A stretch of 64,000 bases of DNA from positions 7,771-71,770 of the forward strand of contig JACRIR010000051.1 of the NCBI GenBank assembly GCA_016215705.1, written 5' to 3'. The notes under the pieces are model-generated. The model had not been told where the DNA came from, searched no databases, and was given only the letters and a program-made list of their open reading frames with translations. This document shows positions 3,680-25,229 of this stretch, piece after piece (position 1 is the stretch's first letter; every line of letters begins with the position of its first letter). The position numbers were made by a program, and so were the translations under genes. This DNA comes from Candidatus Poribacteria bacterium. Lineage in GTDB: Bacteria; Abyssobacteria; SURF-5.

Positions 3680-5362
3680 ATGCGCACACTGTTCTACGGG
3701 TCTTGCCTGTCTCTCCTGCTGGTGCTTTTACCCTTACGCAATTCCACGGCGCAGGAATATCATATGCTCGACACCGAAGAAGCCTTCACGGTGGGCCAAG
3801 GGAATATTAGAACAGAAGTCGAGTTCGGTATCACCAAACAGCCCGATGCATCGGAATTATACAATATACCGCGTCTTCGGCTGACCTACGGATTGAGCGA
3901 GTGGGCCGACTTGGAATTGGAATATGAAGTTCTCGCCGTCAACGACACCGACTTCACTGAGTTTAGTGAAGGGACCACCAATGTGGACCATGACGACGCG
4001 GGTACAGGAGACCTGAGGATCAAACTCAAGGTCATTCCCTACGAATTTGGTCGGCATGACATGGGCTTTCAATTCATAACAAAACTTCCAAATGCTGATC
4101 AGCACGAAGGGCTTGGCACAAACGAGACCGATCTCACAGGGCAGGTTCTATTCTCCAGTGATTGGGGCCGACTCAAGACTCATGTTAACGCCGGCTTGGC
4201 TGTTCTCGGAGACCCGGCGAGGAATGGAAACCAAAACGACTTCTTGATATGGGGAGCGGGAGGGGAATACACTCTCACCGATTCTCTGACGCTGATGGGC
4301 GAAGTCGAAGGATCAACAGCGGCCGAACACGGCACGGAAGGCTTCACCGAGAATATCACCGAGGGCTCCGAAGGGAACGCGCGCGCAAGGGTGCGCTTTG
4401 CTCTCACCGGGCCGATTGGGCGATGGAGATGGGGAATCAGCGGATTCAAGGGCATCAATAGTCACACGGAAGACTGGGGAGCTCAGTTCGGCCTCAGCCG
4501 AACGTGGGGCATCGGCAGCTCAAGAGAGACCGCAAAGCCGCCGCTGGCGCGAGGAACCATCCCTGAATCCTACTTCAACCCTCTGAAGACAGAAGAAGCT
4601 TACACTATCGGCGAACATGACTTCCGCACTGAAATAGGCACCGCCTATGTCAGGCAACCAGACGAATCTGACCTCTATGTAATCCCGGATTTGACCGTGG
4701 GATGGGGGATTGGACCCTGGGCTGACCTGCAATTCGAGTTCCAGTATTTGAAAGTGAAAGATACCGTCCGGCTCGACGTGAACGAAGGTGTTCTCGAAGA
4801 TAACATCGATGCGAATGGGAGGGGCGACGTCAGAATGAAGTTCAAGGCGTCTCCTTTTGAATGTAAATACGGCAGACTGGGAATCCAATTCATCACGAAG
4901 GCGCCAAGCGCAAGTGACGACGACGCCCTCGGCACGGATGAAGTCGATTTTATAGCCAAGGGTCTTTTTTCTACCGATTGGTCGCAGTTCTTCGCAGACG
5001 GTCCATTCAGTCGTCTGAGAACACATCTCAATGCGGGTTTATCAGTACAGGGGGACCGAAACAGGTTGGGAATACAACGTGACTACCTGCTGTGGGGAGT
5101 CGCAGCCGATTACGACATCATGCCTTCGCTTACTCTCTGGGCGGAAGCAGAAGGTTCCGAATCCGGAAAAGACAGCGCCAACATATCCGAAGGTGACTTC
5201 GGTAAAGCATATGCGGAAGCGCGTGTCGGGCTCACAGGCCCTCTCCCCAAAATGGCTTTTCTCGAAGATTGGAAATGGGGCGTCACCGCTTCGGCAGGCC
5301 TCAGCAATCGCTCACGAGATTGGACTGCAAGCGTGGGTCTCAGCCACACGTGGGGATTATGA
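3680..5362 (+). CDS. hypothetical secreted or outer-membrane protein with internal tandem duplication of a ~270-aa module
   Basis: N-terminal signal peptide (MRTLFYGSCLSLLLVLLPLRNSTAQE). The two halves align, for example LDTEEAFTVGQGNIRTEVEFG against LKTEEAYTIGEHDFRTEIGTA. Both halves end with GLSRTWGI or GLSHTWGL. Alternating polar and aromatic stretches suggest beta strands. Confidence 0.6.
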   Translation: MRTLFYGSCLSLLLVLLPLRNSTAQEYHMLDTEEAFTVGQGNIRTEVEFGITKQPDASELYNIPRLRLTYGLSEWADLELEYEVLAVNDTDFTEFSEGTTNVDHDDAGTGDLRIKLKVIPYEFGRHDMGFQFITKLPNADQHEGLGTNETDLTGQVLFSSDWGRLKTHVNAGLAVLGDPARNGNQNDFLIWGAGGEYTLTDSLTLMGEVEGSTAAEHGTEGFTENITEGSEGNARARVRFALTGPIGRWRWGISGFKGINSHTEDWGAQFGLSRTWGIGSSRETAKPPLARGTIPESYFNPLKTEEAYTIGEHDFRTEIGTAYVRQPDESDLYVIPDLTVGWGIGPWADLQFEFQYLKVKDTVRLDVNEGVLEDNIDANGRGDVRMKFKASPFECKYGRLGIQFITKAPSASDDDALGTDEVDFIAKGLFSTDWSQFFADGPFSRLRTHLNAGLSVQGDRNRLGIQRDYLLWGVAADYDIMPSLTLWAEAEGSESGKDSANISEGDFGKAYAEARVGLTGPLPKMAFLEDWKWGVTASAGLSNRSRDWTASVGLSHTWGL

Positions 5363-5680: not shown

Positions 5681-6577
5681 ATGAAAGGGGTAGTTTTGAG
5701 GTGGGTTGCAGGCGTCCTGAGATGGATATTCGCCCGATTGTCACCCGAGGTTGCGGGTTCTGTCGGGATAATCCTCGGAGATGTCGTGCGTGTTCTTGAC
5801 GCCAGGCATCGGCGAATAGCGCGCTTCAACCTCCGAATGGCCTTCGGCGCCTCAAAGTCAGAAAAAGAAGTAAAACAAATAGTACGGGACGTTTTCCGCA
5901 ATATTGGGCAGACAGCCGTAGAATTCATGCAAATCCCGTCTCTCACCTATGAAAAAGCCCTCAGCATGATTACTCCGGAACACCGTGAGAGACTGGACGA
6001 ATGCTTGCGGGCGGGAAGAGGCGTCGTACTGCTTGGCTCGCATTTCGGCAACTGGGAGCTCATGGCTGCCGCAGGCGCTATTGCCGGATATAGACTGTCG
6101 GCTGTGGCCAGGCCGCTTGACGATCCGGACCTGGAGAGAATAGTCCGCGGAATCAGGGAATCGTCCGGACTTTGCATAATCCCGCGGCGCACGTCGGCGC
6201 TCGCAATAGTGAGGAAATTCAAGCGAAACGAGATCGTAGGCGTTCTCGCCGACCAGAATACAAGAAAACAGAACGTCTTTGTGGATTTCTTCGGGGTGAA
6301 GGCCGCAACGACACCCGGACCGGCGCTGCTCGCCATGAAAACCGGCGCCATTCTTGTGCCCGCATTCATGCTGCGTGAAGCGCGCGGCAAACACAAGCTC
6401 ATAATCGAGAAACCGATTGAAGTGATACGGACGGGTGATGAGGAGGCGGATGTGGTCGCCATGACTCAGAAATGCGCTGCCATTCTGGAAGAGTATGTCA
6501 GAAGATATCCGGAGCAATGGTTTTGGGTCCACAGGCGCTGGAGGACCCGGCCTCCCGGAGAACCGCCCCTTTATTAG
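5681..6577 (+). CDS. lipid A biosynthesis late acyltransferase (LpxL/HtrB family, lysophospholipid acyltransferase superfamily)
   Basis: 298 aa. Carries the GSHFGNWE motif characteristic of Kdo2-lipid IVA acyltransferases and sits adjacent to the heptose-pathway genes. Confidence 0.75.
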   Translation: MKGVVLRWVAGVLRWIFARLSPEVAGSVGIILGDVVRVLDARHRRIARFNLRMAFGASKSEKEVKQIVRDVFRNIGQTAVEFMQIPSLTYEKALSMITPEHRERLDECLRAGRGVVLLGSHFGNWELMAAAGAIAGYRLSAVARPLDDPDLERIVRGIRESSGLCIIPRRTSALAIVRKFKRNEIVGVLADQNTRKQNVFVDFFGVKAATTPGPALLAMKTGAILVPAFMLREARGKHKLIIEKPIEVIRTGDEEADVVAMTQKCAAILEEYVRRYPEQWFWVHRRWRTRPPGEPPLY

Positions 6578-6659
6578 TGATGAGCTTCTTGAGTACAGGA
6601 AGAGCGGCAGTGAAGGGCTCAGGTAGCAAGGCGCCGCGTGGCAGGCGCGTGAGGGAAAA

Positions 6660-7616
6660 ATGGCAAGAACAAGGCGATACAAACCCGCGAATCTCACGAA
6701 AGTGAGAACACATAGCATCAAGAGCCGGAAAACCAAAGTGTCGCTGCGGCAGTTTGCATCGCTGCCGGAGCCCGACGCAAGTTTCACCGAGTTTCTGGCT
6801 TCACTCCCGGATGTCCTCGCCGTCACTCGCCTCAGGAACTTAATCAACGATATTCTTTCCGCCCGAAAAGCCGACAGGCCCGTCGTGGCCGCGTTCGGTG
6901 GACATGTCGTAAAGTGCGGGCTTGGACCCATTATCATAGATTTGATGCGAAGAGGATTCATAACCGCCATCGCGATGCATGGGGCGACGGCTATTCATGA
7001 CTATGAGATCTCGCTCATAGGTCAGACCTCCGAGGACGTGGAGGCAGTCTTGAAGGATGGCTCGTTCGGCATGGCGCGTGAGACTCCTCATGCGTTCGGG
7101 CGCGCCGCGAAGCTGGCATCTAGAAAGCGAGTGGGCCTCGGGCGCGCACTCGGCGATCTGATATTATCGGAGAAGAATCCGTATTCGCCGTTCAGTATTC
7201 TCGGCGCTGCCGCTGATCTCGATACTCCCGCCGCCGTAATGCTTGCGCTTGGGACCGACACCGTTTGCATGCATCCGGACTTCAATGCTGAAAAGCTGGC
7301 TGCCGCCAGCTACGTTGATTTCCGCACTCTTGTGTCGATTGCCGCCGATCTCGAAGGGGGAGTCTGGATGAATATCGGTTCCGCTGTAATTCTGCCCGAA
7401 GTATTCCTGAAGGTATTGAGCGTTGCTCGAAACATGGGCAACCGGGTCGAAAAGTTCACCACCGCCAACCTCGACATGAATCAGCACTATCGTCCGAATA
7501 CCAATGTTGTGGGCAGGCCCACGAAGCGCGGGTATTCAATAACAGGCCACCACGAGATCATGACGCCGCTGCTGCGCATGGGAATTATTTCCGCGGCCAA
7601 AGGAAAGATTCTGTGA
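6660..7616 (+). CDS. deoxyhypusine synthase (DHS)-like family protein, function unknown
   Basis: 318 aa. VVAAFGGHVVKCGLGPIIIDLMRRGFITAIAMHGATAIHD resembles the DHS GG-x-TTGGG-EED NAD-binding segment. EKNPYSPFSILGAAADLDT resembles the DHS motif KN-x-x-x-FSPALTDGSLGD. The start is uncertain because the basic N-terminus may be an extension. There is a 4-bp overlap with hldE. Confidence 0.4.
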   Translation: MARTRRYKPANLTKVRTHSIKSRKTKVSLRQFASLPEPDASFTEFLASLPDVLAVTRLRNLINDILSARKADRPVVAAFGGHVVKCGLGPIIIDLMRRGFITAIAMHGATAIHDYEISLIGQTSEDVEAVLKDGSFGMARETPHAFGRAAKLASRKRVGLGRALGDLILSEKNPYSPFSILGAAADLDTPAAVMLALGTDTVCMHPDFNAEKLAAASYVDFRTLVSIAADLEGGVWMNIGSAVILPEVFLKVLSVARNMGNRVEKFTTANLDMNQHYRPNTNVVGRPTKRGYSITGHHEIMTPLLRMGIISAAKGKIL

Positions 7617-9094
7617 GGGAAGGGCTAATCTCTCGTCTGGAAACGACACAGAACCCGGCCATTCTTGTGACCGGCGACATCATGCTCGATATGTACGTGT
7701 GGGGGAACGTTGAACGGATTTCTCCGGAGGCGCCGGTCCAGGTGCTAAAGATAGAGTCCGAGGAGCCGCGTCCGGGCGGAGCCGGCAACGTGGCGGCGAA
7801 CCTCTCCGCACTCGGCGCAAGGGTCTCCTGCTGCGGCATTGTCGGTGACGATGCTAATGGCCGCCTGCTTTGCCGGCTGCTCGGAAAGCTCCGAGTCGAC
7901 ACATCCGGAATGCTGCGGGATAAGGAGCGCCCCACTACGGTAAAGACGCGAATGATCGCCCACGGTCAACAGTTGCTGCGGGTGGACAAAGAAGAGACAC
8001 GACCTCCCACGGAAACAATTGAGAAGAAGTTGCTTGAGCGCATAAACGCTTTGCTGCCCTCGTGCGACGCCGTGCTGCTATCAGACTATGGGAAGGGCAC
8101 TCTGTCTGACGACGCAATCAGGAAGATTGTGGCGGCCTCCAATAAGAACCATAAGCCTGTCCTTGTCGATCCCGCCAGGCATCGCTCTGTCGAGTCTTAC
8201 AGACAGTGCACCGTATTGAAACCGAATCGCACCGAAGCCGCTCTGGCCGCCGGCATGCAGATAACGGACGAGGTTTCGCTGGAAGCTGCGGCAACGAGAT
8301 TGCTCGACGTCTCCAAAGCCATGTGCGTTCTTGTAACCGAGGGAAGCAATGGGATGACGGTTTTCAGGAAGTCATCCGAACCGCTGCACGTCGGCGGTCT
8401 GAGTCGCCCCGTTTATGACATTACCGGCGCGGGTGACACCGTTCTGAGCCTCCTGGGATACGTTCTCGCCGGCGGGGGAACTATTGAGGAAGCCGCCGAG
8501 ATCGCAAATGTCGCGGGGAGCATCGTCGTAGGCAAGCTCGGCGCCGCGCCGGTCACGAAGCAGGAAATCATCCGAGAATTGATGAGTTTTCAGCACGTTG
8601 CGTCCCACAAAATCAAGACAAGCGACGAAATTGCGGCGGTCTGTAGGGAACACAGGCGGCGAAAAGAAAAAATCGTATTTACGAATGGCTGCTTTGACTT
8701 GCTCCACGTCGGCCACATAAAGCTTTTTCAGTTCGCCAAAAACAATGGGGAGGTTCTTGTCGTCGGACTGAACTCGGATGCCTCGGTGAGAAAGCTCAAG
8801 GGGCCCTCAAGGCCGCTGCTGAAACAGACCGAGCGGGCATACATCCTGTCGGCGCTCGAACAGATTGATTACATTGTCGTGTTCGAGGAGACTACTCCGC
8901 TGAAACTCATCAAGGTGGTCAAGCCCGATGTTCTTGTGAAAGGCGCTGATTATACCAGGGACACGGTCGTCGGCAGGGATTTTGTGGAGTCTTACGGCGG
9001 ACGTGTTGAACTTGCTCCACTCGTGGAAGGCGCATCTAGTTCCGGCATCATGTCGCGGATTGTCAATAACAAAAACATCCCTCAGAAATCGTGA
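7613..9094 (+). CDS. hldE: bifunctional D-glycero-beta-D-manno-heptose-7-phosphate kinase / heptose-1-phosphate adenylyltransferase
   Basis: 493 aa. N-terminal pfkB-type sugar kinase domain, and a C-terminal cytidylyltransferase domain with FTNGCFDLLHVGHIKLF. Uses a GTG start. Confidence 0.9.
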   Translation: MREGLISRLETTQNPAILVTGDIMLDMYVWGNVERISPEAPVQVLKIESEEPRPGGAGNVAANLSALGARVSCCGIVGDDANGRLLCRLLGKLRVDTSGMLRDKERPTTVKTRMIAHGQQLLRVDKEETRPPTETIEKKLLERINALLPSCDAVLLSDYGKGTLSDDAIRKIVAASNKNHKPVLVDPARHRSVESYRQCTVLKPNRTEAALAAGMQITDEVSLEAAATRLLDVSKAMCVLVTEGSNGMTVFRKSSEPLHVGGLSRPVYDITGAGDTVLSLLGYVLAGGGTIEEAAEIANVAGSIVVGKLGAAPVTKQEIIRELMSFQHVASHKIKTSDEIAAVCREHRRRKEKIVFTNGCFDLLHVGHIKLFQFAKNNGEVLVVGLNSDASVRKLKGPSRPLLKQTERAYILSALEQIDYIVVFEETTPLKLIKVVKPDVLVKGADYTRDTVVGRDFVESYGGRVELAPLVEGASSSGIMSRIVNNKNIPQKS

Positions 9095-9103
9095 AAGGTC
9101 TCC

Positions 9104-9706
9104 ATGACTTTGGCAAATCGAGCAGTGTTCCTCGACCGCGACGGAACCATCAACGAAGAATGCGGCTACCTGAACCATCCGGACCGGCTGAGGCTGATCG
9201 AAGGAGCCCCCGAGGCTGTCGCGCTGCTTAATCGTCACGGATTCAAGACGATCGTGGTGTCGAATCAGTCCGGGGTCGCCCGGGGGTATTTCCCCGAAAA
9301 ACTCCTGGGAGCCCTTCACGACAAGATTCAGGCCCTTCTCAAGGCGCATGGCGCAGCCCTGGACGCGATATATTACTGCCCTCATCACTCCAGCGTCGGC
9401 GAGCCGCCTTACAGGCAGGATTGCGAATGCCGGAAACCGAAACTCGGAATGATTCACAGGGCTGAAATAGAATTTGCGGTCGATGCGCGACGCTCCTATA
9501 TGGTCGGCGATAAACTGAGCGACGTCGAGTTCGGAAAGCGCGCGGGCTGCAAGACTATTCTGGTTCTGACGGGCTATGGCAAGGGCGAATGGGAATACAA
9601 TCGGGAGAAATGCCCCGTGAAACCGGACTACGTTGCGGCGGATGTCCTCGGCGCCGCAAGGTGGATTGTCAATGACCTGAAAAACCGGGAACAGAGTCCA
9701 CGATGA
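9104..9706 (+). CDS. gmhB: D,D-heptose 1,7-bisphosphate phosphatase (HAD family)
   Basis: 200 aa with the HAD motif FLDRDGTIN and a Cys-rich zinc site (CPHH...CECRKP), typical of GmhB. Confidence 0.85.
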   Translation: MTLANRAVFLDRDGTINEECGYLNHPDRLRLIEGAPEAVALLNRHGFKTIVVSNQSGVARGYFPEKLLGALHDKIQALLKAHGAALDAIYYCPHHSSVGEPPYRQDCECRKPKLGMIHRAEIEFAVDARRSYMVGDKLSDVEFGKRAGCKTILVLTGYGKGEWEYNREKCPVKPDYVAADVLGAARWIVNDLKNREQSPR

Positions 9707-11202
9707 AGGTTCTTTTTATATACCCGAACTTGAATGCTCAGGTTGGCTTCAATTACGGAGTCGCCTTCCTGTCTGCTTGCCTGAAGGAAAGCGGCCATTC
9801 TACGGCCCTCCTTAACATCAACGAACAACTCGGATTCGATTTTGACGTTGCAAGGATCAGACGCGAGGTAACCGCGTTCGCGCCGGACCTGATCGGTTTC
9901 TCGGTCGTGAGCAATCAATATCGCTTCGCCCGCGAGATCGCGCGCGACATAAAAACGTATTGCAAAGCGCCCATTGTCTGCGGCGGCATTCATCCGACAA
10001 TGGACCCCGAAAGCGTGCTGCGGGATGGATGCTTCGATTACGTGTGTGTTGGAGAAGGCGAGCGCGCAATAGTCGAGCTTGCGGACGCATTGGAAAACGG
10101 TAGCCCCACAACCGGTATCGAGAATATTTGGCTCAAAGTTGAGGGGGATATTATCCGGAACCACGTGCGGCCGTTTGTGCCACTCGAATCTCTCCCCCGA
10201 AAGGACTACGAGATTTTCGAGTTTCAGAAGATGATCGACGCGAAGGACGGCTGGGTCGGAATCATGAGTTCGAGGGGTTGCCCTTTCAGTTGCTCATATT
10301 GCTTCAATCATCGTTTGCGCGAGCTCTATGAGCGTGACCTTGGCTGCTCCGCAGCCGCGCTGCGCTACATCAGGTATCATCCCGTGACCGCCGTGATTGA
10401 CGAAATAGAGACGCTGCTGTCATCGTACAAGAATATAAAAACCATCATCTTCGACGATGATCTGTTCACACTGAACAAGAACTACTTGAGAGAGTTTTGC
10501 AGGGAATACGGCCGGCGCGTCGGCCTGCCTTTTGTGTGCAATGCGCATGTGAAAGTGTTTGACGAGGAGGCGGCAGGATGTCTGAAGGAAGCAGGCTGCC
10601 GGATTGTGAAATTCGGGCTCGAAAGCGGGAGCGACCGGGTCAGGCGCGAAATACTGAACCGGCGTATGTCCAATGACGACATCATTCGCGCGTTTGCGAC
10701 CGCCGAACGCTTCGGATTCCACACGTCTGCATTTGTGATTATCGGCTTCCCTCGCGAAACCATAGCCGAAATCCACGAAACAATAGAACTGCTCGCGCGC
10801 ATAAGGCCCGGCCGATTTCGCTGGTCGGTCTTTTTCCCGTTCGTTAACACGCGCGCATATGACATTGCGCGCGAAGGGGGGTTCATCGACTTCGAGAAGC
10901 TCGAGAGCCTTACCAATTTCACGGATGAATCCGCTCTCGACTTCGGGCCCACGCACAACCTGCTCCTCCGAAAACTGAGGACAACGTTTCCCTGGTACGT
11001 CAATGCCCGCGCAAATTTCAAGTGCTCCCCCCTCTATTCCGAACTCATCGAGCGCGTCGAGAAGATCACGCCGGAGGAATGGCCCAAAGTGGAGGAGTCC
11101 GTCACCCGGATTGATACCGACATCTCGCGAATGCTGGACCTCTCGGAAGAGCCGCATTACGGCTATAAGTACAATATGTTCACGGCGGTGAGAAGCTATT
11201 AA
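9703..11202 (+). CDS. B12-binding domain radical SAM protein
   Basis: 499 aa. N-terminal Rossmann-like B12-binding region and the radical SAM cluster motif GCPFSCSYC. Overlaps gmhB by 4 bp, so it is in the same operon. Confidence 0.85.
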   Translation: MKVLFIYPNLNAQVGFNYGVAFLSACLKESGHSTALLNINEQLGFDFDVARIRREVTAFAPDLIGFSVVSNQYRFAREIARDIKTYCKAPIVCGGIHPTMDPESVLRDGCFDYVCVGEGERAIVELADALENGSPTTGIENIWLKVEGDIIRNHVRPFVPLESLPRKDYEIFEFQKMIDAKDGWVGIMSSRGCPFSCSYCFNHRLRELYERDLGCSAAALRYIRYHPVTAVIDEIETLLSSYKNIKTIIFDDDLFTLNKNYLREFCREYGRRVGLPFVCNAHVKVFDEEAAGCLKEAGCRIVKFGLESGSDRVRREILNRRMSNDDIIRAFATAERFGFHTSAFVIIGFPRETIAEIHETIELLARIRPGRFRWSVFFPFVNTRAYDIAREGGFIDFEKLESLTNFTDESALDFGPTHNLLLRKLRTTFPWYVNARANFKCSPLYSELIERVEKITPEEWPKVEESVTRIDTDISRMLDLSEEPHYGYKYNMFTAVRSY

Positions 11203-11248: not shown

Positions 11249-12271
11249 GTGGGAGACGTGGTCATGGCTACGCCGGCGCTGAGATGTCTCCGCCTCAATT
11301 TCCCCAAAGCTCAGATTGATCTGACGTTGATTCCATACGTGCGCAAAATTCTCGAAGGCGCGCCGTGGTTCGACGCAATCATCGAATACTCGCCCAAAGG
11401 CGAACACAAAGGGATCGTGGGCCACCGGCGATATCTTCGCGGCCTGCGGAAGAACGAGTACGACCTGATTCTCGTTTTTCCGAACTCCTTCATTTCGGCG
11501 CTCCTCGCATATCTTTCCGGCGCGAAACTGCGTGTCGGGTACAATCGCGAAGGTCGCAGGATTCTGTTGACCAATGCCCTCCCGCGTCCGGCTGAAAGCG
11601 GCAGGTTTGCGCCACAGCCAATGGTGGATTATTACCTGAAGCTTTGCGAAGAGGTCGGAGCGACGGCGGGCTCAAAGAAAACCGAACTCTTTGTGGACCA
11701 TGCCTCCGAGAAACGGGCGGAAGAGTTGTTCGCGAAATACGAGATAGGGCGGAGGAGGCCCGTCATCGCCATCAATCCGGGCGCTGCCTATGGCTCTTCC
11801 AAGCTGTGGGCTCCCGAGAATTTCTCCGAAGTCTGCGACACTCTTCTCGAACACGCAGATTGCGACGTGGTGCTCCTGGGTGGACCAAATGAGCAGAATA
11901 CCGTGTGTGAAATAGTGCACGCCGCGCGTGTGAAACCAACGAATCTTGCAGAAGAGAATGTGCCTCTTGATCTGCTTAAATCGGTCATCAAACGGTGCGA
12001 CCTGCTTATTACAGTCGATTCCGGTCCTCGACACATTGCGGTCGCGTTCGATAAGCCGGTGGTCGTGCTGATGGGTCCAACCGATCCTCGCTATACGAAC
12101 TGCAATCTCGAAAAGTCGGCGATCCTGAGAGTCAGCGACCTCGACTGCGCTCCGTGTCACATCAAGAAATGTCCGACCGACCACGAATGCATGACAAGGA
12201 TTACGCCCGATATGGTCATCCGGGCTGCCTCCGAGCTTCTCAGGAAATACGTGCGGGCGAGTCAGCTTTGA
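11249..12271 (+). CDS. ADP-heptose:LPS heptosyltransferase (glycosyltransferase family 9)
   Basis: 340 aa with GT9 hallmarks (VGDVVMATPALRCL, GPTDPRYT, CAPCHIKKC). The ORF starts at GTG 11249, but the upstream in-frame peptide NRILVRLPNWVGD suggests the true start lies a few codons upstream (about 11198). Confidence 0.8.
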   Translation: MGDVVMATPALRCLRLNFPKAQIDLTLIPYVRKILEGAPWFDAIIEYSPKGEHKGIVGHRRYLRGLRKNEYDLILVFPNSFISALLAYLSGAKLRVGYNREGRRILLTNALPRPAESGRFAPQPMVDYYLKLCEEVGATAGSKKTELFVDHASEKRAEELFAKYEIGRRRPVIAINPGAAYGSSKLWAPENFSEVCDTLLEHADCDVVLLGGPNEQNTVCEIVHAARVKPTNLAEENVPLDLLKSVIKRCDLLITVDSGPRHIAVAFDKPVVVLMGPTDPRYTNCNLEKSAILRVSDLDCAPCHIKKCPTDHECMTRITPDMVIRAASELLRKYVRASQL

Positions 12272-15273: not shown

Positions 15274-16404
15274 CTATCGCGATCTCAACGGCCTTTCCTG
15301 TTTGAATAGTTCACTTGCAGCTTCGAGAACATCCTCCGGTTTGACCGCTTCCATGCACTTCGCGTAGACGCAATCCTCATCGCATGGGTGGCACGGGACT
15401 TCGCTCCTTACGATTCTGTTCGGCTTCCAGTAGGGCGCGTTTATTCGCTCATCCGTCGGCCCGAAAATCGCCACCACCGGCGTTCCCATCGCGGAGCCTA
15501 TGTGCATGGGGCCCGAGTCCACAGTGACCATCATCTCGCACAATTCCAACAAAGCGGCCAGCTCGAGCAGACTATCGGTCTGCATTCCGATCAGAGGGCG
15601 TGTTCTTGTCAAGGAGCGTATTTGCTCGACCTCTTCACGCTCACCCGGTCCCCACGTGAGAATTACCCTTGCCCCGAGCTTCTGTGTCAAGAGATCGCAG
15701 AGAGCGGCAAACGACTGCAAAGGCCACTTTTTCAGGGGGCGGCTGGTCCCCGGATGAACGGCTACCAGTGGATGGCAATCTCCAAGCTTGTCATGGATGA
15801 ATTTGTGTGCTTTCGCGCGATGTTTATCCGTCACACCCAACGCCGGCCTTTGCGTCAGATTTCCAGGCAGTACGAACTGTTTTATCAATTCGAGATTCCT
15901 GACTACACGGGGCAAGCCTGCGTCAGAAGGCCTTATTCGGAGATTCGTGAAGAAATAGCTGAATTCCTTGACATAGCCTTCCTTGAAGCCGATCCTCTTC
16001 GGAGAATGGGACAAGTATGCGATGAGGCCGCTCTTGAGTATTCCGTGGAAGTCGAACGCAAGGTCATATTTGACACTTCGCAAGCGGGATAAGAATCGAA
16101 TGAGCAACGCAACGGCTTCGGGAAAACGCAAAGGGTTCTTCAATGACCGCACAATTCTTTTTCTCTCAAACACCAATACCTCATCGAGATACGGATGCCC
16201 CTCTAATATGCCGCTCGATTTGTCTTCGACGACCCAAGTGATGTGAGCTTTGGGATAGTTCTGCCTGAGAGAAGTGAGCGCCGGCAGCGTTCGGACCACG
16301 TCGCCGATTGAGCTGAGCCTTATGATCAGGATACTACTGGGCGTGACAGTGCCAACCATGCGTGGATTATAACTTAGCCGGTCTGCTGTGTCAAAAGTAG
16401 ACAC
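15274..16404 (-). CDS. ADP-heptose:LPS heptosyltransferase (GT9; WaaF/WaaC-like)
   Basis: 376 aa with ILIIRLSSIGDVV, GPTDERINAPY and CHPCDEDC motifs. The true start is possibly the internal Met (MVGTVTPSS) near 16359. Confidence 0.85.
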   Translation of the reverse strand: MSTFDTADRLSYNPRMVGTVTPSSILIIRLSSIGDVVRTLPALTSLRQNYPKAHITWVVEDKSSGILEGHPYLDEVLVFERKRIVRSLKNPLRFPEAVALLIRFLSRLRSVKYDLAFDFHGILKSGLIAYLSHSPKRIGFKEGYVKEFSYFFTNLRIRPSDAGLPRVVRNLELIKQFVLPGNLTQRPALGVTDKHRAKAHKFIHDKLGDCHPLVAVHPGTSRPLKKWPLQSFAALCDLLTQKLGARVILTWGPGEREEVEQIRSLTRTRPLIGMQTDSLLELAALLELCEMMVTVDSGPMHIGSAMGTPVVAIFGPTDERINAPYWKPNRIVRSEVPCHPCDEDCVYAKCMEAVKPEDVLEAASELFKQERPLRSR

Positions 16405-22678: not shown

Positions 22679-22736
22679 TTAATGAGTTTGACAAGGTTAT
22701 AACTGAAGTTTGGGATGGAAGCTTTGGGAGGAACAC

Positions 22737-25229
22737 ATGAAGAAGCGCTTGGGTTGGATTGCGGTCTTGTCGGCTCTGCCGGTCCTTTTCTTTCTCGCGC
22801 TGTCGCTCAGAAAAGAAGGAACGTCTGAAGCCGCGTCGGGAATGAGAAGGGTTGGAGTGCCCCTGGAGAGTCCCCTCTACAAAGAGGGCGAAATACTCGT
22901 GCAAATGAAGCCGGGGATATCAAAAAGCGCCTCCCTCAGTGTTCATTCGGCTTTTGGCGCAGCAAAGATCGAGGATCTAGGTGGCGGGGCTGAGCTTGTG
23001 AAGTTACCGGCCGGTATGTCGGTGAATGAAGCAGTTGCGCTCTATTCCGCCAATGCCAATGTCTCGGAAGCATCTCCCAACTACTATCAGCGTGTCAGGC
23101 AAACATTCCCCAATGATCCGTCGTTCGGATTCCTCTGGGGAATGAATAACACCGGGCAAACCGGGGGAACTCCGGACGCTGACATCGATGCCCCCGAGGC
23201 ATGGGAGCTCACAACCGGTGACCCGGGTGTGGTGATCGCTGTCGTGGATACGGGCGTGGACTATAATCACCCCGACCTTGTCGCTAACATGTGGATTAAT
23301 CCGGGCGAGGTTGCTGGAAACGGAATCGACGACGATCTTAACGGTTACATCGATGACGTTCATGGGATAAATGCAATCGACGGAGTTACAAGCCCGGGAG
23401 ATCCGCTTGATGACAATGGGCATGGCACGCACGTAGCCGGCACTATCGGAGCCGTAGGCAACAACAGCGCCGGTGTCACCGGCATCAATTGGAACGTGAA
23501 AATAATGGCGCTGAAGTTTCTGACATCCGAAGGTTTTGGCGCAGTTAGCGACGAAGTCGAGTGCCTCAATTACATAGCCGACCAGGCTGATCGTGGCCAG
23601 AAGATCGTCGCCGTAAACGCCTCATTCGGCAGCTACTCGCCATTGTTCAGTTTCGAGCAGAATGCCATAGACAATCTGCGGCAGCGCGGTATCCTTTTCG
23701 TGGCCGCAGCCGGCAATGGGGATGTGAATGGCAATGGAGTGGAGAATGATGAATTGTTGCATATTCCCTCGAGCTACGACCTGCCAAATCTGATTTCTGT
23801 CGCCGCCACCAATGACACGGACAATCTGTCGGGCTTCTCGAATTTCGGCCGAAGGACAGTCCACGTTGGAGCGCCCGGAGAGAGTATTTTCAGCACTCTC
23901 TTAGGTGGAACATATGGACCTTTCGATACGGGATTTTCCGGCACGTCAATGGGAACTCCGCACGTGGTCGGCACAATCGGTTTGCTCTATGCCCGATTCC
24001 CGGTTCTGAATCCGGTGACGGATTGGCCTCTCGTAAGAAATCGGATTCTTACCGGTGGCGACATCGATCAATTCCTCGCCGGCAGAACAGTCACCGGCAG
24101 ACGATTGAACGCGTTTGGCGCTTTGACATGTTCCGGGACTACCGTCCTCGCCAGAATCAGACCCCTCACAAGCTTGACAAAATCCTGGCTATCCGGTGGT
24201 ATCACATTTTACATACCAGATCCTCTACCTGAGCGGAATGAGGCCACTGTTTTCTTCGGGCAAGACATCTTCGGCAATGCGTTCAGCATTCCTCTTAAGC
24301 TCTCAGCGCTTCACATCAACTGCGAGCAGCCCAACGGCAATGTCGTTGTTAATGTCGGCGGGCAGGCTGTCACCCTGCTCGATGGCGGCGTTTCGCCCGA
24401 CCGTGTTGCCGGCGACGGCGTCTATACTTCCGCGTGGAATCCCCCTCTTGCTGAAACAGACCTTGTTGCCACTTTTCCCAACACCGGCACTTCTATCGCT
24501 CCTTTTACCGACAGCTTTGTAGTTCACGTGCGCAGAACCGACGACCGGAACGGATTCGTTGTGGCGGACGCCGGAGTTTCTCAGACAGTCGAAGGAGGAA
24601 GTGTCGTGGATCTGGACGGCAGAATAAGCACGAGACGTCCCGAGATGTCGCCGGTGCTCACTTATACATGGACGCAAACGAGGGGGACGAATGTAACTCT
24701 TAATTTTGACGATACTCCATTCCCATTCTTCACGGCTCCGAGCGCAACAGGTGGCCCGGATGATACCTTGGTATTCGAATTGGAGGTGTCGGATCTTGAT
24801 GGAAACACGGCCACTGATACGACTGCGGTTACTGTAGCAGCCCCGGCGGCGGCGGGTGGCGGCGGCGGGGGTGGCGGAAGCTCGTGCTTCATCGCGACTG
24901 CGGCCTACGGTTCGGAAAATGCGCGAGACGTTGTGGTTCTCCGGCAGTTCCGGGACCGATACCTGATTACGAACGCGCCAGGCGCTGCATTTACGAACCT
25001 ATACTACAAGCTGTCACCTCCCGTAGCTTCGCTGATCGCAAACCGTCCCGCCCTTAAGAAAACTGTAAGGATTGGTCTGACTCCTGCGGTAGGGTTTGCA
25101 CAAGTCATGCTTGAAACAACAGGGGCCGAAAAACTTGTCATGAGCCTCCTGCTCGTTTCACTTGCCATCTCGCTTGTTATTTTCAGACAGCGGCACAAGA
25201 GGCTTGTTCACAGCGGAGATTCGATATAG
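22737..25229 (+). CDS. S8 family serine peptidase (subtilisin-like), secreted, with C-terminal Ig/PKD-like region, Gly8 linker and CFIATAAYGS-type C-terminal anchor module
   Basis: Catalytic triad motifs VVDTGVDYNHPDL, HGTHVAGTIG and GTSMGTPHV. Signal peptide MKKRLGWIAVLSALPVLFFLALS, preceded by the RBS gggagg. The ORF track starts 27 nt earlier at 22710. The C-terminus has GGGGGGGGSSCFIATAAYGS, then about 100 aa, a terminal TM helix and a basic tail. Confidence 0.85.
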   Translation: MKKRLGWIAVLSALPVLFFLALSLRKEGTSEAASGMRRVGVPLESPLYKEGEILVQMKPGISKSASLSVHSAFGAAKIEDLGGGAELVKLPAGMSVNEAVALYSANANVSEASPNYYQRVRQTFPNDPSFGFLWGMNNTGQTGGTPDADIDAPEAWELTTGDPGVVIAVVDTGVDYNHPDLVANMWINPGEVAGNGIDDDLNGYIDDVHGINAIDGVTSPGDPLDDNGHGTHVAGTIGAVGNNSAGVTGINWNVKIMALKFLTSEGFGAVSDEVECLNYIADQADRGQKIVAVNASFGSYSPLFSFEQNAIDNLRQRGILFVAAAGNGDVNGNGVENDELLHIPSSYDLPNLISVAATNDTDNLSGFSNFGRRTVHVGAPGESIFSTLLGGTYGPFDTGFSGTSMGTPHVVGTIGLLYARFPVLNPVTDWPLVRNRILTGGDIDQFLAGRTVTGRRLNAFGALTCSGTTVLARIRPLTSLTKSWLSGGITFYIPDPLPERNEATVFFGQDIFGNAFSIPLKLSALHINCEQPNGNVVVNVGGQAVTLLDGGVSPDRVAGDGVYTSAWNPPLAETDLVATFPNTGTSIAPFTDSFVVHVRRTDDRNGFVVADAGVSQTVEGGSVVDLDGRISTRRPEMSPVLTYTWTQTRGTNVTLNFDDTPFPFFTAPSATGGPDDTLVFELEVSDLDGNTATDTTAVTVAAPAAAGGGGGGGGSSCFIATAAYGSENARDVVVLRQFRDRYLITNAPGAAFTNLYYKLSPPVASLIANRPALKKTVRIGLTPAVGFAQVMLETTGAEKLVMSLLLVSLAISLVIFRQRHKRLVHSGDSI

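Follow-up and report, generated by a model that had tools for sequence, protein, structure and literature searches.

A protein family with a deoxyhypusine synthase-like fold, apparently integral to bacterial heptose biosynthesis, as a credible substitute for the epimerase HldD

The subject of this analysis is an open reading frame (ORF) at positions 6660-7616 of a 64-kb stretch of DNA from Candidatus Poribacteria bacterium (contig JACRIR010000051.1); "the window" denotes this whole stretch. The ORF's product, referred to below as X, belongs to the GSU2086 family, which many phyla apparently use as an integral component in making heptose. ADP-heptose synthesis is regarded as a closed, five-enzyme textbook pathway, whose product is both a building block of the lipopolysaccharide (LPS) core and a ligand of the innate immune sensor ALPK1. 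The best overall explanation, to which we assign a probability of roughly 0.4, is that the GSU2086 family acts in the biosynthesis of ADP-D-glycero-beta-D-manno-heptose, where it would use a nicotinamide adenine dinucleotide (NAD)-type cofactor to invert C6. The family is a credible non-homologous substitute for the epimerase HldD. The observations behind this reading are family membership, the predicted fold, a conserved gene order, fusions to heptose-pathway enzymes, and the absence of HldD from every locus examined.

The ORF is a real gene. It matches the curated NCBIfam model NF052581, "GSU2086 family protein", with 353.4 bits against a cutoff of 250 (E 1.2e-105, far beyond chance), residues 10-306 covering model positions 2-299 of 301. 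The match spans the full length, the operon context is that of the model's namesake, GSU2086 of Geobacter sulfurreducens, and X is a plain member of the family. This family is large: 7987 of 8000 candidates scored in a word-indexed search were significant, searching 1.84 billion cluster representatives exhaustively turned up at least 435 clusters (50% identity, E<=1e-30), and at least 587 of 600 pattern matches among GTDB species genomes encode a relative. It is catalogued by name and functionally uncharacterised; a search for literature on the function of GSU2086, or on a deoxyhypusine synthase (DHS)-like protein together with heptose, found as its sole paper a transposon-sequencing (Tn-seq) study of Geobacter.

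The initial annotation had called the ORF a DHS-like protein. We conclude that X is not a DHS: the DHS model NF002630 scores 18.8 bits against a cutoff of 364 (E 7e-4), over residues 74-122 only, and a Pfam scan gave no match of the ORF to PF01916 (DHS) at E<=0.01. Two further models score similarly below their cutoffs, namely TIGR00300, for the nickel-pincer ornithine cyclodeaminase (OCD), with 18.1 bits against 410.8, and PF21570 (ArgZ-like_C_2nd), with 20 bits against 27 over profile positions 4-64 of 213. All of these weak matches fall within residues ~56-122. Pfam and NCBIfam scans of the ORF found no SIS domain, nor any match at E<=0.01 to short-chain dehydrogenase/reductase (SDR) models or TIGR02197.

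In the window, X lies in a cluster of LPS-core and heptose genes, as follows.

6651..6655, plus strand: Shine-Dalgarno-like GAGGG, 4 nt before the ATG of the ORF, as read from the sequence.
6660..7616, plus strand: the GSU2086-family ORF, 318 amino acids, ATG start, predicted DHS-like fold.
5681..6577, plus strand: lipid A late acyltransferase of the LpxL type, next upstream of the ORF (PF03279, 189 bits).
7613..9094, plus strand: hldE, bifunctional heptose-7-phosphate kinase / heptose-1-phosphate adenylyltransferase (TIGR02198, 358.8 bits, cutoff 345; TIGR02199, 193.2 bits, cutoff 181.5).
9104..9706, plus strand: gmhB, heptose 1,7-bisphosphate 7-phosphatase of the HAD-IIIA type (NF006506, 174.8 bits, cutoff 178; TIGR00213, 144.7 bits, cutoff 149.6).
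9703..11202, plus strand: B12-binding radical S-adenosylmethionine (SAM) protein, between gmhB and waaF, overlapping gmhB by 4 bp.
11249..12271, plus strand: heptosyltransferase II (WaaF-like), a consumer of ADP-heptose (TIGR02195, 174.1 bits, cutoff 134.6).
15274..16404, minus strand: a second GT9 heptosyltransferase (WaaC-like; TIGR02193, 166.6 bits, cutoff 185.3; further GT9 models match).

The stop codon of the ORF (TGA, 7614-7616) overlaps the start codon of hldE (GTG, 7613-7615) in a 4-bp GTGA, and in the window the ORF forms one transcription unit with hldE and gmhB, to which it is translationally coupled. Coordinates and domain matches agree with the initial annotation in placing it between the lipid A late acyltransferase and hldE, with this 4-bp overlap.

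This arrangement is kept well beyond the source genome. Eighty loci were fetched from GTDB species genomes, and the gene was called in 77 of them, from about 9 phyla; the sampled lineages include Planctomycetota (with Brocadiales), Nitrospirota, Thermodesulfobacteriota, Poribacteria, Omnitrophota, Methylomirabilota and Verrucomicrobiota. Neighbours were labelled by phmmer against a reference set made up of the window's LPS proteins plus GmhA and HldD of E. coli. X directly abuts a heptose-pathway gene (gmhA, hldE or gmhB) in 49 of the 77 loci, and another LPS gene in 5 more. The same-strand upstream neighbour is gmhA in 34 loci and LpxK in 10; downstream lies HldE in 13 and GmhB in 4. In Desulfobacterales gmhA and X form a two-gene island amid unrelated genes, with SelA and a TPR protein upstream and a Zn-ribbon protein, HemC and HemD/CobA downstream. 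Omnitrophota show the order X-HldA-KdsB-...-KdsD-KdsC. The Abyssubacteria relative (L005) has the arrangement seen in the window.

In Geobacter the operon reads gmhA (GSU2087)-GSU2086-hldE (GSU2085)-gmhB (GSU2084), according to the Tn-seq study (PMC5585712). For transposon insertions the study reports, on electrodes, similar defects for gmhA (log2 -3.7), GSU2086 (-3.2) and hldE (-3.1).

The initial annotation had also pointed out that GmhA, which supplies the first step of the pathway, is missing from the window's cluster. A tblastn search bears this out: queried with the GmhA and HldD sequences of E. coli (NC_000913), the 64 kb show a homologue of neither (best E 0.4 and 1.1, respectively). 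The implied reading is that X substitutes for the missing sedoheptulose-7-phosphate isomerase, and the Abyssubacteria relative also has no gmhA within 10 kb. The inference fails on the relatives, which often carry gmhA upstream of X (the 34 loci above) or fused to it (P0162 and P0239, below); Geobacter has both gmhA and GSU2086, with phenotypes for both, and X has no SIS similarity. Because gmhA is adjacent to or fused with X in relatives, we regard it as highly improbable that the protein replaces GmhA.

Several long proteins among the 150 best cluster representatives proved to be fusions when read with Pfam and NCBIfam. Their domain orders are these.

P0123, P0126, P0142: X, then heptose-1-phosphate adenylyltransferase (HldC).
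P0167, P0265: adenylyltransferase (HldC), then X.
P0158: GmhB-type HAD phosphatase, then X.
P0162: GmhA, then X.
P0239: X, then GmhA.
P0168: X, then a whole HldE.
P0256: X, then HldA kinase.
P0218: DUF89 phosphatase, then adenylyltransferase (HldC), then X (826 amino acids, metagenomic).
P0127 (679 amino acids), P0263 (582 amino acids): tandem X-X.

The fusion partners score highest with heptose-specific NCBIfam models, and not with those for NMN adenylyltransferase or other sugar kinases; TIGR02199 is above its cutoff in P0123 and P0142. Frameshift errors where neighbouring genes overlap could account for some of the metagenomic fusions, which would weaken the case; adjacency is still attested if so, and since orders and partners vary, we take several of the fusions to be real. 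In P0218 the DUF89/ARMT1-type damage-control phosphatase may stand in for GmhB, which would place three consecutive steps on one polypeptide. The tandem X-X proteins are consistent with a dimer or higher oligomer, as in DHS.

Taken as neighbours or fusion partners of X, the canonical steps towards ADP-L,D-heptose all occur, except the last, that of the SDR epimerase HldD. The initial annotation overlooked that this is the canonical step without a gene in these clusters. A locus-level search of about 100 loci (the window, the 80 genome loci, 18 loci from IMG/VR and two plasmid modules) found no HldD equivalog. Nearby SDRs were considered as divergent HldD proteins and rejected: with TIGR02197, whose cutoff is 274.6, they reach 54-112 bits, and models for GalE, RmlB, TviC or Fcl do equally well or better. 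In the part of the supplementary tables of the Geobacter Tn-seq study that was searched, the symbols hldD, rfaD and gmhD do not occur. The Helicobacter cluster gmhA-hldE-hldD-gmhB, for example, has hldD in the position that X holds in the heptose operons.

HldD binds a nicotinamide cofactor tightly and inverts C6'' of ADP-heptose through a transient oxidation. As an extended SDR (RfaD/GmhD; TIGR02197) it has no sequence or fold relationship to the GSU2086 family, and is proposed here as a functional analogue only. As a general reading, the suggestion of the initial annotation that X could perform a non-canonical step on the sugar-nucleotide is still the best one, and we consider it very probable that X is an unrecognised catalytic component of nucleotide-heptose synthesis. 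The more specific claim, that X supplies the C6 epimerase step done elsewhere by HldD, stands at somewhat below even odds; we propose it because HldD is the sole step without a gene in the clusters, and because of the NAD-type redox logic of the relatives of X.

These relatives emerge from the predicted structure. An AlphaFold2 model built with 46 homologues (mean predicted local distance difference test score, pLDDT, of 81; predicted template modelling score 0.82) shows a six-stranded alpha/beta fold. Foldseek returned 92 matches in the PDB at E<=1e-3, and each of the best 50 listed is an ArgZ/AgrE, 3c2q or DHS structure, at a probability of 1.00 and with template modelling (TM) scores of 0.49-0.60 and identities of 10-16%. 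The lowest E values belong to the C-terminal OCD domain of ArgZ/AgrE (1.5e-7) and to 3c2q, of the LOR/SDH type (3e-7), with DHS at 1e-6 to 4e-5. A profile of 63 diverse family members, compared with PDB sequences, ranks them alike (ArgZ 1.4e-5, AgrE 7e-5, 3c2q 3e-4, archaeal DHS 8put 6e-3), its matches being limited to the segment GxHVIKxG...AxAIHDxE at profile positions 56-119. The model and the Foldseek matches thus bear out the DHS-like fold of the initial annotation, and confirm a predicted DHS-like, Rossmann-type fold for the GSU2086 family as an assignment at superfamily level.

The closest structural and sequence relatives are the OCD domain of ArgZ/AgrE (PF21570; PDB 6juy, 6lrf-6lrh) and the archaeal LOR/SDH-type OCD (TIGR00300; 3c2q), which share with X the strand-loop-helix segment GxxVIxxG...AxAxHDxE and the overall DHS-like fold. 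They differ in that only ~64 of 213 profile positions align, with scores below the cutoffs and identities of 12-15%, and in context, since they serve arginine and ornithine catabolism whereas X stands in heptose synthesis. With DHS and homospermidine synthase (PF01916) X has in common the fold (TM 0.5-0.6) and a weak similarity in the first nucleotide-binding segment, and it probably resembles DHS in making catalytic use of a bound dinucleotide. Unlike DHS, it has no counterpart of the nucleophilic lysine, falls far under the hidden Markov model (HMM) cutoff, shows 10-16% identity and has no eIF5A-type substrate context. The characterised relatives all carry a dinucleotide of the NAD type. DHS binds NAD, and in DHS, OCD and HldD the cofactor is used catalytically: it serves an oxidation and then a re-reduction in a single turnover, and is thereby regenerated. 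AgrE has been crystallised with NAD+ and ornithine (title of PDB entry 6lrg), and a passage of PMC13524815 citing Desguin 2025 states that the archaeal OCD uses a nickel-pincer adenine dinucleotide.

Conservation was read from family alignments of 46 and 63 sequences, the latter at 33-54% identity, and divides the protein into the following segments.

6894..7007, plus strand: residues 79-116 (FGGHVVKCG...AIAMHGATAIHDYE), putative dinucleotide-binding strand-loop-helix pair and the sole segment significantly similar to the ArgZ/AgrE OCD domain, 3c2q and DHS.
7026..7079, plus strand: residues 123-140, a low-confidence loop and candidate substrate lid, with invariant T123, S124, E125, G134, F136 and G137 (pLDDT ~59 for 121-140).
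7173..7226, plus strand: residues 172-189 (KNPYSPFSILGAAADLDT), a family-specific conserved block with N173, S179, L181, L187 and P190 conserved.
7371..7556, plus strand: residues 238-299, the presumed active site, where invariant residues cluster at the C-terminal ends of strands.

Within the first segment G80, H82, K85, G87, H113, D114 and E116 are invariant or nearly so. The presumed active site comprises a second glycine-rich loop (N238-x-G240-S241), a helix with E247, K251, R257 and N258, then D272, and in residues 273-299 the loop Q275-H276-Y277-R278...R286-P287 followed by the strand/helix T295-G296-H297-H298-E299. G198, D200 and D220 are also invariant. In all, ~25-40 polar positions (His, Asp, Glu, Arg, Lys, Thr) vary little or not at all among the 63 sequences. 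In the model the invariant residues sit at the C-terminal ends of strands and in two mobile loops, and the loops of lowest confidence (~121-140 and 273-289) are rich in them. Because this clustering is as expected of such a site, the model suggests a putative site for a cofactor and a phosphorylated sugar.

Two peptides had initially been cited as DHS signatures, and X does contain both. The first (G80-G81...I101-D114) is truly shared with DHS; the second (K172-T189), beginning KNPYSPFSIL..., is specific to the GSU2086 family, and no tool aligned it to DHS. The initial annotation had also remarked on the lack of a catalytic lysine in the GGGVVKHH region. In human DHS, whose sequence was checked against the PDB, the catalytic lysine is K329, outside the GGGVVKHH block, which holds K287 and H288. 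A comparison of the family profile with human DHS by hhalign sets residues 277-309 opposite DHS 319-354, which spans the K329 loop and the YADAS strand, and P287/R286 opposite K329, in a marginal alignment of 36 columns (E 0.12). No lysine is invariant or nearly so in residues 273-289, the equivalent of that loop, in either the 46- or the 63-sequence alignment. Together with the DHS HMM score far below its cutoff, this upholds the view that the protein is non-canonical relative to DHS.

The same result bears on a second proposal of the initial annotation, that X adds a spermidine-derived aminobutyl group to LPS in the manner of DHS. The DHS-like fold and the weak N-terminal matches to DHS (NF002630 at E 7e-4, and PF01916 at 19-26 bits in some relatives) speak for it. 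A protein that scores 18.8 bits against a DHS cutoff of 364, has no conserved lysine in the nucleophile loop and is nearer in sequence to the OCD branch than to DHS is a poor candidate for such a transferase. Its partners, moreover, are cytoplasmic enzymes of precursor synthesis rather than late LPS-modifying enzymes, and neither eIF5A nor polyamine genes recur among the neighbours of the family loci. We therefore consider amine transfer to LPS to be very improbable.

Returning to C6 epimerisation, we envisage the following mechanism. By analogy with its DHS and OCD relatives, the GSU2086-family protein would be cytoplasmic and would hold an NAD-type dinucleotide, conceivably of the nickel-pincer type, as a prosthetic group. 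This bound cofactor would transiently oxidise the substrate and then re-reduce it, in a redox-neutral cycle. The likeliest reaction would be inversion at C6 of the heptose, acting on ADP-D,D-heptose or possibly on heptose 7-phosphate, and the product would be L-glycero-D-manno-heptose in lineages without HldD. ADP-D,D-heptose as the substrate would agree with the phosphatase-adenylyltransferase-X order of P0218 and with how often X is fused to the adenylyltransferase; heptose 7-phosphate would agree with the tight pairing with GmhA. Binding of cofactor and phosphosugar, and acid/base catalysis, might be provided by H82, H113-D114-x-E116, T123-x-E125, D220, E247, K251, D272, R278, R286 and H298. 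HldD would be replaced in this way across Thermodesulfobacteriota, Nitrospirota, Planctomycetota, Poribacteria, Omnitrophota and other phyla. In its fullest form, in which a non-homologous heptose 6-epimerase with a DHS fold and a bound NAD-type cofactor replaces HldD across phyla and a diverged branch has been recruited by phages, the proposal is a tentative one, at perhaps one chance in three.

A number of points weigh against the epimerase proposal. The characterised enzymes of the fold all oxidise C-N bonds, not sugar hydroxyls, and cofactor binding is inferred from ~65 aligned residues of sequence and from a fold match of the model at 10-16% identity. HldD could be encoded elsewhere in these genomes, or the organisms could use D,D-heptose; the literature we found states no heptose stereochemistry for Geobacter or anammox LPS. 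The Tn-seq phenotype of Geobacter GSU2086 may be a polar effect on hldE. About one third of the loci have no heptose gene within 10 kb, for example the LpxK-ferredoxin-X-Nth order of Brocadiales, the LptE-HolA-X order of many Nitrospirota, and loci of Poribacteria. At three of the latter (L017 5-1450, L018 8258-9904 and L057 8473-10011) the gene upstream of X has IctB as its sole NCBIfam match (61-75 bits against a cutoff of 366); IctB proteins presumably resemble O-antigen ligases or polymerases, which would make these loci an LPS context without heptose genes. Finally, the existence of a phage branch in head-morphogenesis modules without heptose genes, described below, shows that the scaffold is not confined to heptose chemistry.

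There are two further explanations for the link with the heptose pathway. The first is that X is a non-catalytic regulator or scaffold, which binds ADP-heptose or NAD in its dinucleotide pocket and thereby controls or organises GmhA and HldE. Its closest partner, GmhA, is the first committed enzyme, as would fit feedback control, and the tandem X-X fusions (P0127, P0263) suggest an oligomer. Pockets of the DHS/sirtuin type bind ligands containing ADP-ribose, and ADP-heptose is an ADP-sugar that resembles NAD, which we count in favour of this explanation. Against it, the ~25-40 near-invariant polar residues clustered at strand ends are typical of an active site, and fusion to four different enzymes, in both orders, would be unusual for a regulator of a single step. 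We consider a regulatory role to be quite unlikely.

The second is that X catalyses a different cofactor-dependent step that tailors a heptose intermediate, in addition to the canonical pathway and not as a substitute for HldD: another epimerisation, oxidation to a keto-heptose for further modification, or a step towards a non-LPS heptoglycan. Such a role would account equally for the synteny and fusions, and it draws support from occurrences of X in non-core glycan modules. On plasmid pDCAR1 of Solidesulfovibrio carbinolicus (NZ_CP026539.1; L104, 10309-17914) genes for an HldE-like protein, X and a GmhA-like protein lie in a large glycan cluster with NeuB/PseF-type genes, radical-SAM enzymes and methyltransferases. 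X is found with a TylF-type O-methyltransferase and a sulfotransferase at L088, and with an RmlB-type dehydratase and an Fcl-like reductase at L092. It also occurs on plasmid CP069395.1 of Chloroflexota ZRK35 (L105, 9047-14108), in the order HAD protein, X, HldA-like kinase, GmhA-like SIS protein and 508-amino-acid membrane protein; Chloroflexota are not known to have LPS. The window's own radical-SAM gene between gmhB and waaF points the same way. Nevertheless, it is the four core enzymes that accompany X most constantly, in plain LPS-core operons; the tailoring genes vary and none recurs. It would also be surprising if at least 9 phyla carried an additional modification that is unseen in characterised heptose chemistry. 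Thus, we judge a tailoring step to be unlikely, at about one chance in five.

The two annotated plasmids are independent instances of the link between X and heptose genes. In the module of pDCAR1, three radical-SAM genes come after those for the HldE-like protein, X and the GmhA-like protein, and the genes face a cluster of NeuB/PseF/CMP-transferase, methyltransferase, split-transketolase and ATP-grasp genes; the plasmid seems to carry a pathway to an unusual higher-carbon sugar. The Chloroflexota module lies directly downstream of a locus with GntR, an ABC sugar transporter, a Gfo-Idh-MocA protein and DeoC, and could serve to build heptose into a glycan other than LPS, or to salvage or break down heptose.

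A conserved extra gene in the heptose operons of many non-model phyla, fused in one representative or another to each of the other pathway enzymes, implies that outside Proteobacteria the pathway either lacks a component in its present description or runs differently. If X is the missing epimerase, a pathway hole would be filled in the annotations and metabolic models of thousands of environmental genomes, and D,D- versus L,D-heptose could be better predicted for a given bacterium. The chemistry of the DHS-like fold would also extend from amines to sugars, X being the first sugar-directed enzyme on the fold.

The phage branch came to light in the IMG/VR scan, which gave 18 loci with relatives of the family. 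Those at L093-L097 encode relatives of 289-304 amino acids, which lack the N-terminal ~57 residues, score about 240 bits on the family profile and keep most of the invariant residues, with the changes E125Q and D220S/T and an altered GHH motif. Gene order in this branch was read for L094 and L097: in the former (5862-6731) the large terminase and a lambda-type portal gene flank the relative, with overlapping frames, and in the latter (9875-10789) it directly follows the large terminase. More distant relatives of 210 amino acids (L100 10007-10639 and L101 7370-8002; also L098, L099, L102 and L103), at ~25% identity and about 60 bits, retain G198, D200, D220, G240, S241, E247, K251, D272, Y277 and R278, and at L100 and L101 are flanked by a portal-MuF fusion protein on one side and a prohead protease on the other. 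The phage-branch proteins have no match in PHROG families, BFVD structures or GenBank phages.

Some minor observations concern the neighbourhoods of X. At loci of Brocadiales, which are anammox Planctomycetes (L003/L004 9803-9973, also L006, L008 and L010), a gene for a 56-amino-acid 2x[4Fe-4S] ferredoxin stands between lpxK and X, with endonuclease III next. The radical-SAM protein of the window (9703-11202), which may be a core-sugar or lipid methylase, has no equivalent at its position in the Abyssubacteria relative L005 and does not recur at the other loci. Further upstream in the window, 3680-5362 (plus strand) encodes a predicted outer-membrane protein of 560 amino acids, the halves of which resemble a tandem duplication (MLDTEEAFTVGQGNIRTEVEF versus LKTEEAYTIGEHDFRTEIGT); L005 has a gene for 564 amino acids in the matching position, between dnaE and lpxL. 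Downstream, 22710-25229 (plus strand) encodes a subtilisin-like protease of 839 amino acids with a CFI-box-CTERM sorting domain (NF041770, 95 bits) and a choice-of-anchor X domain.

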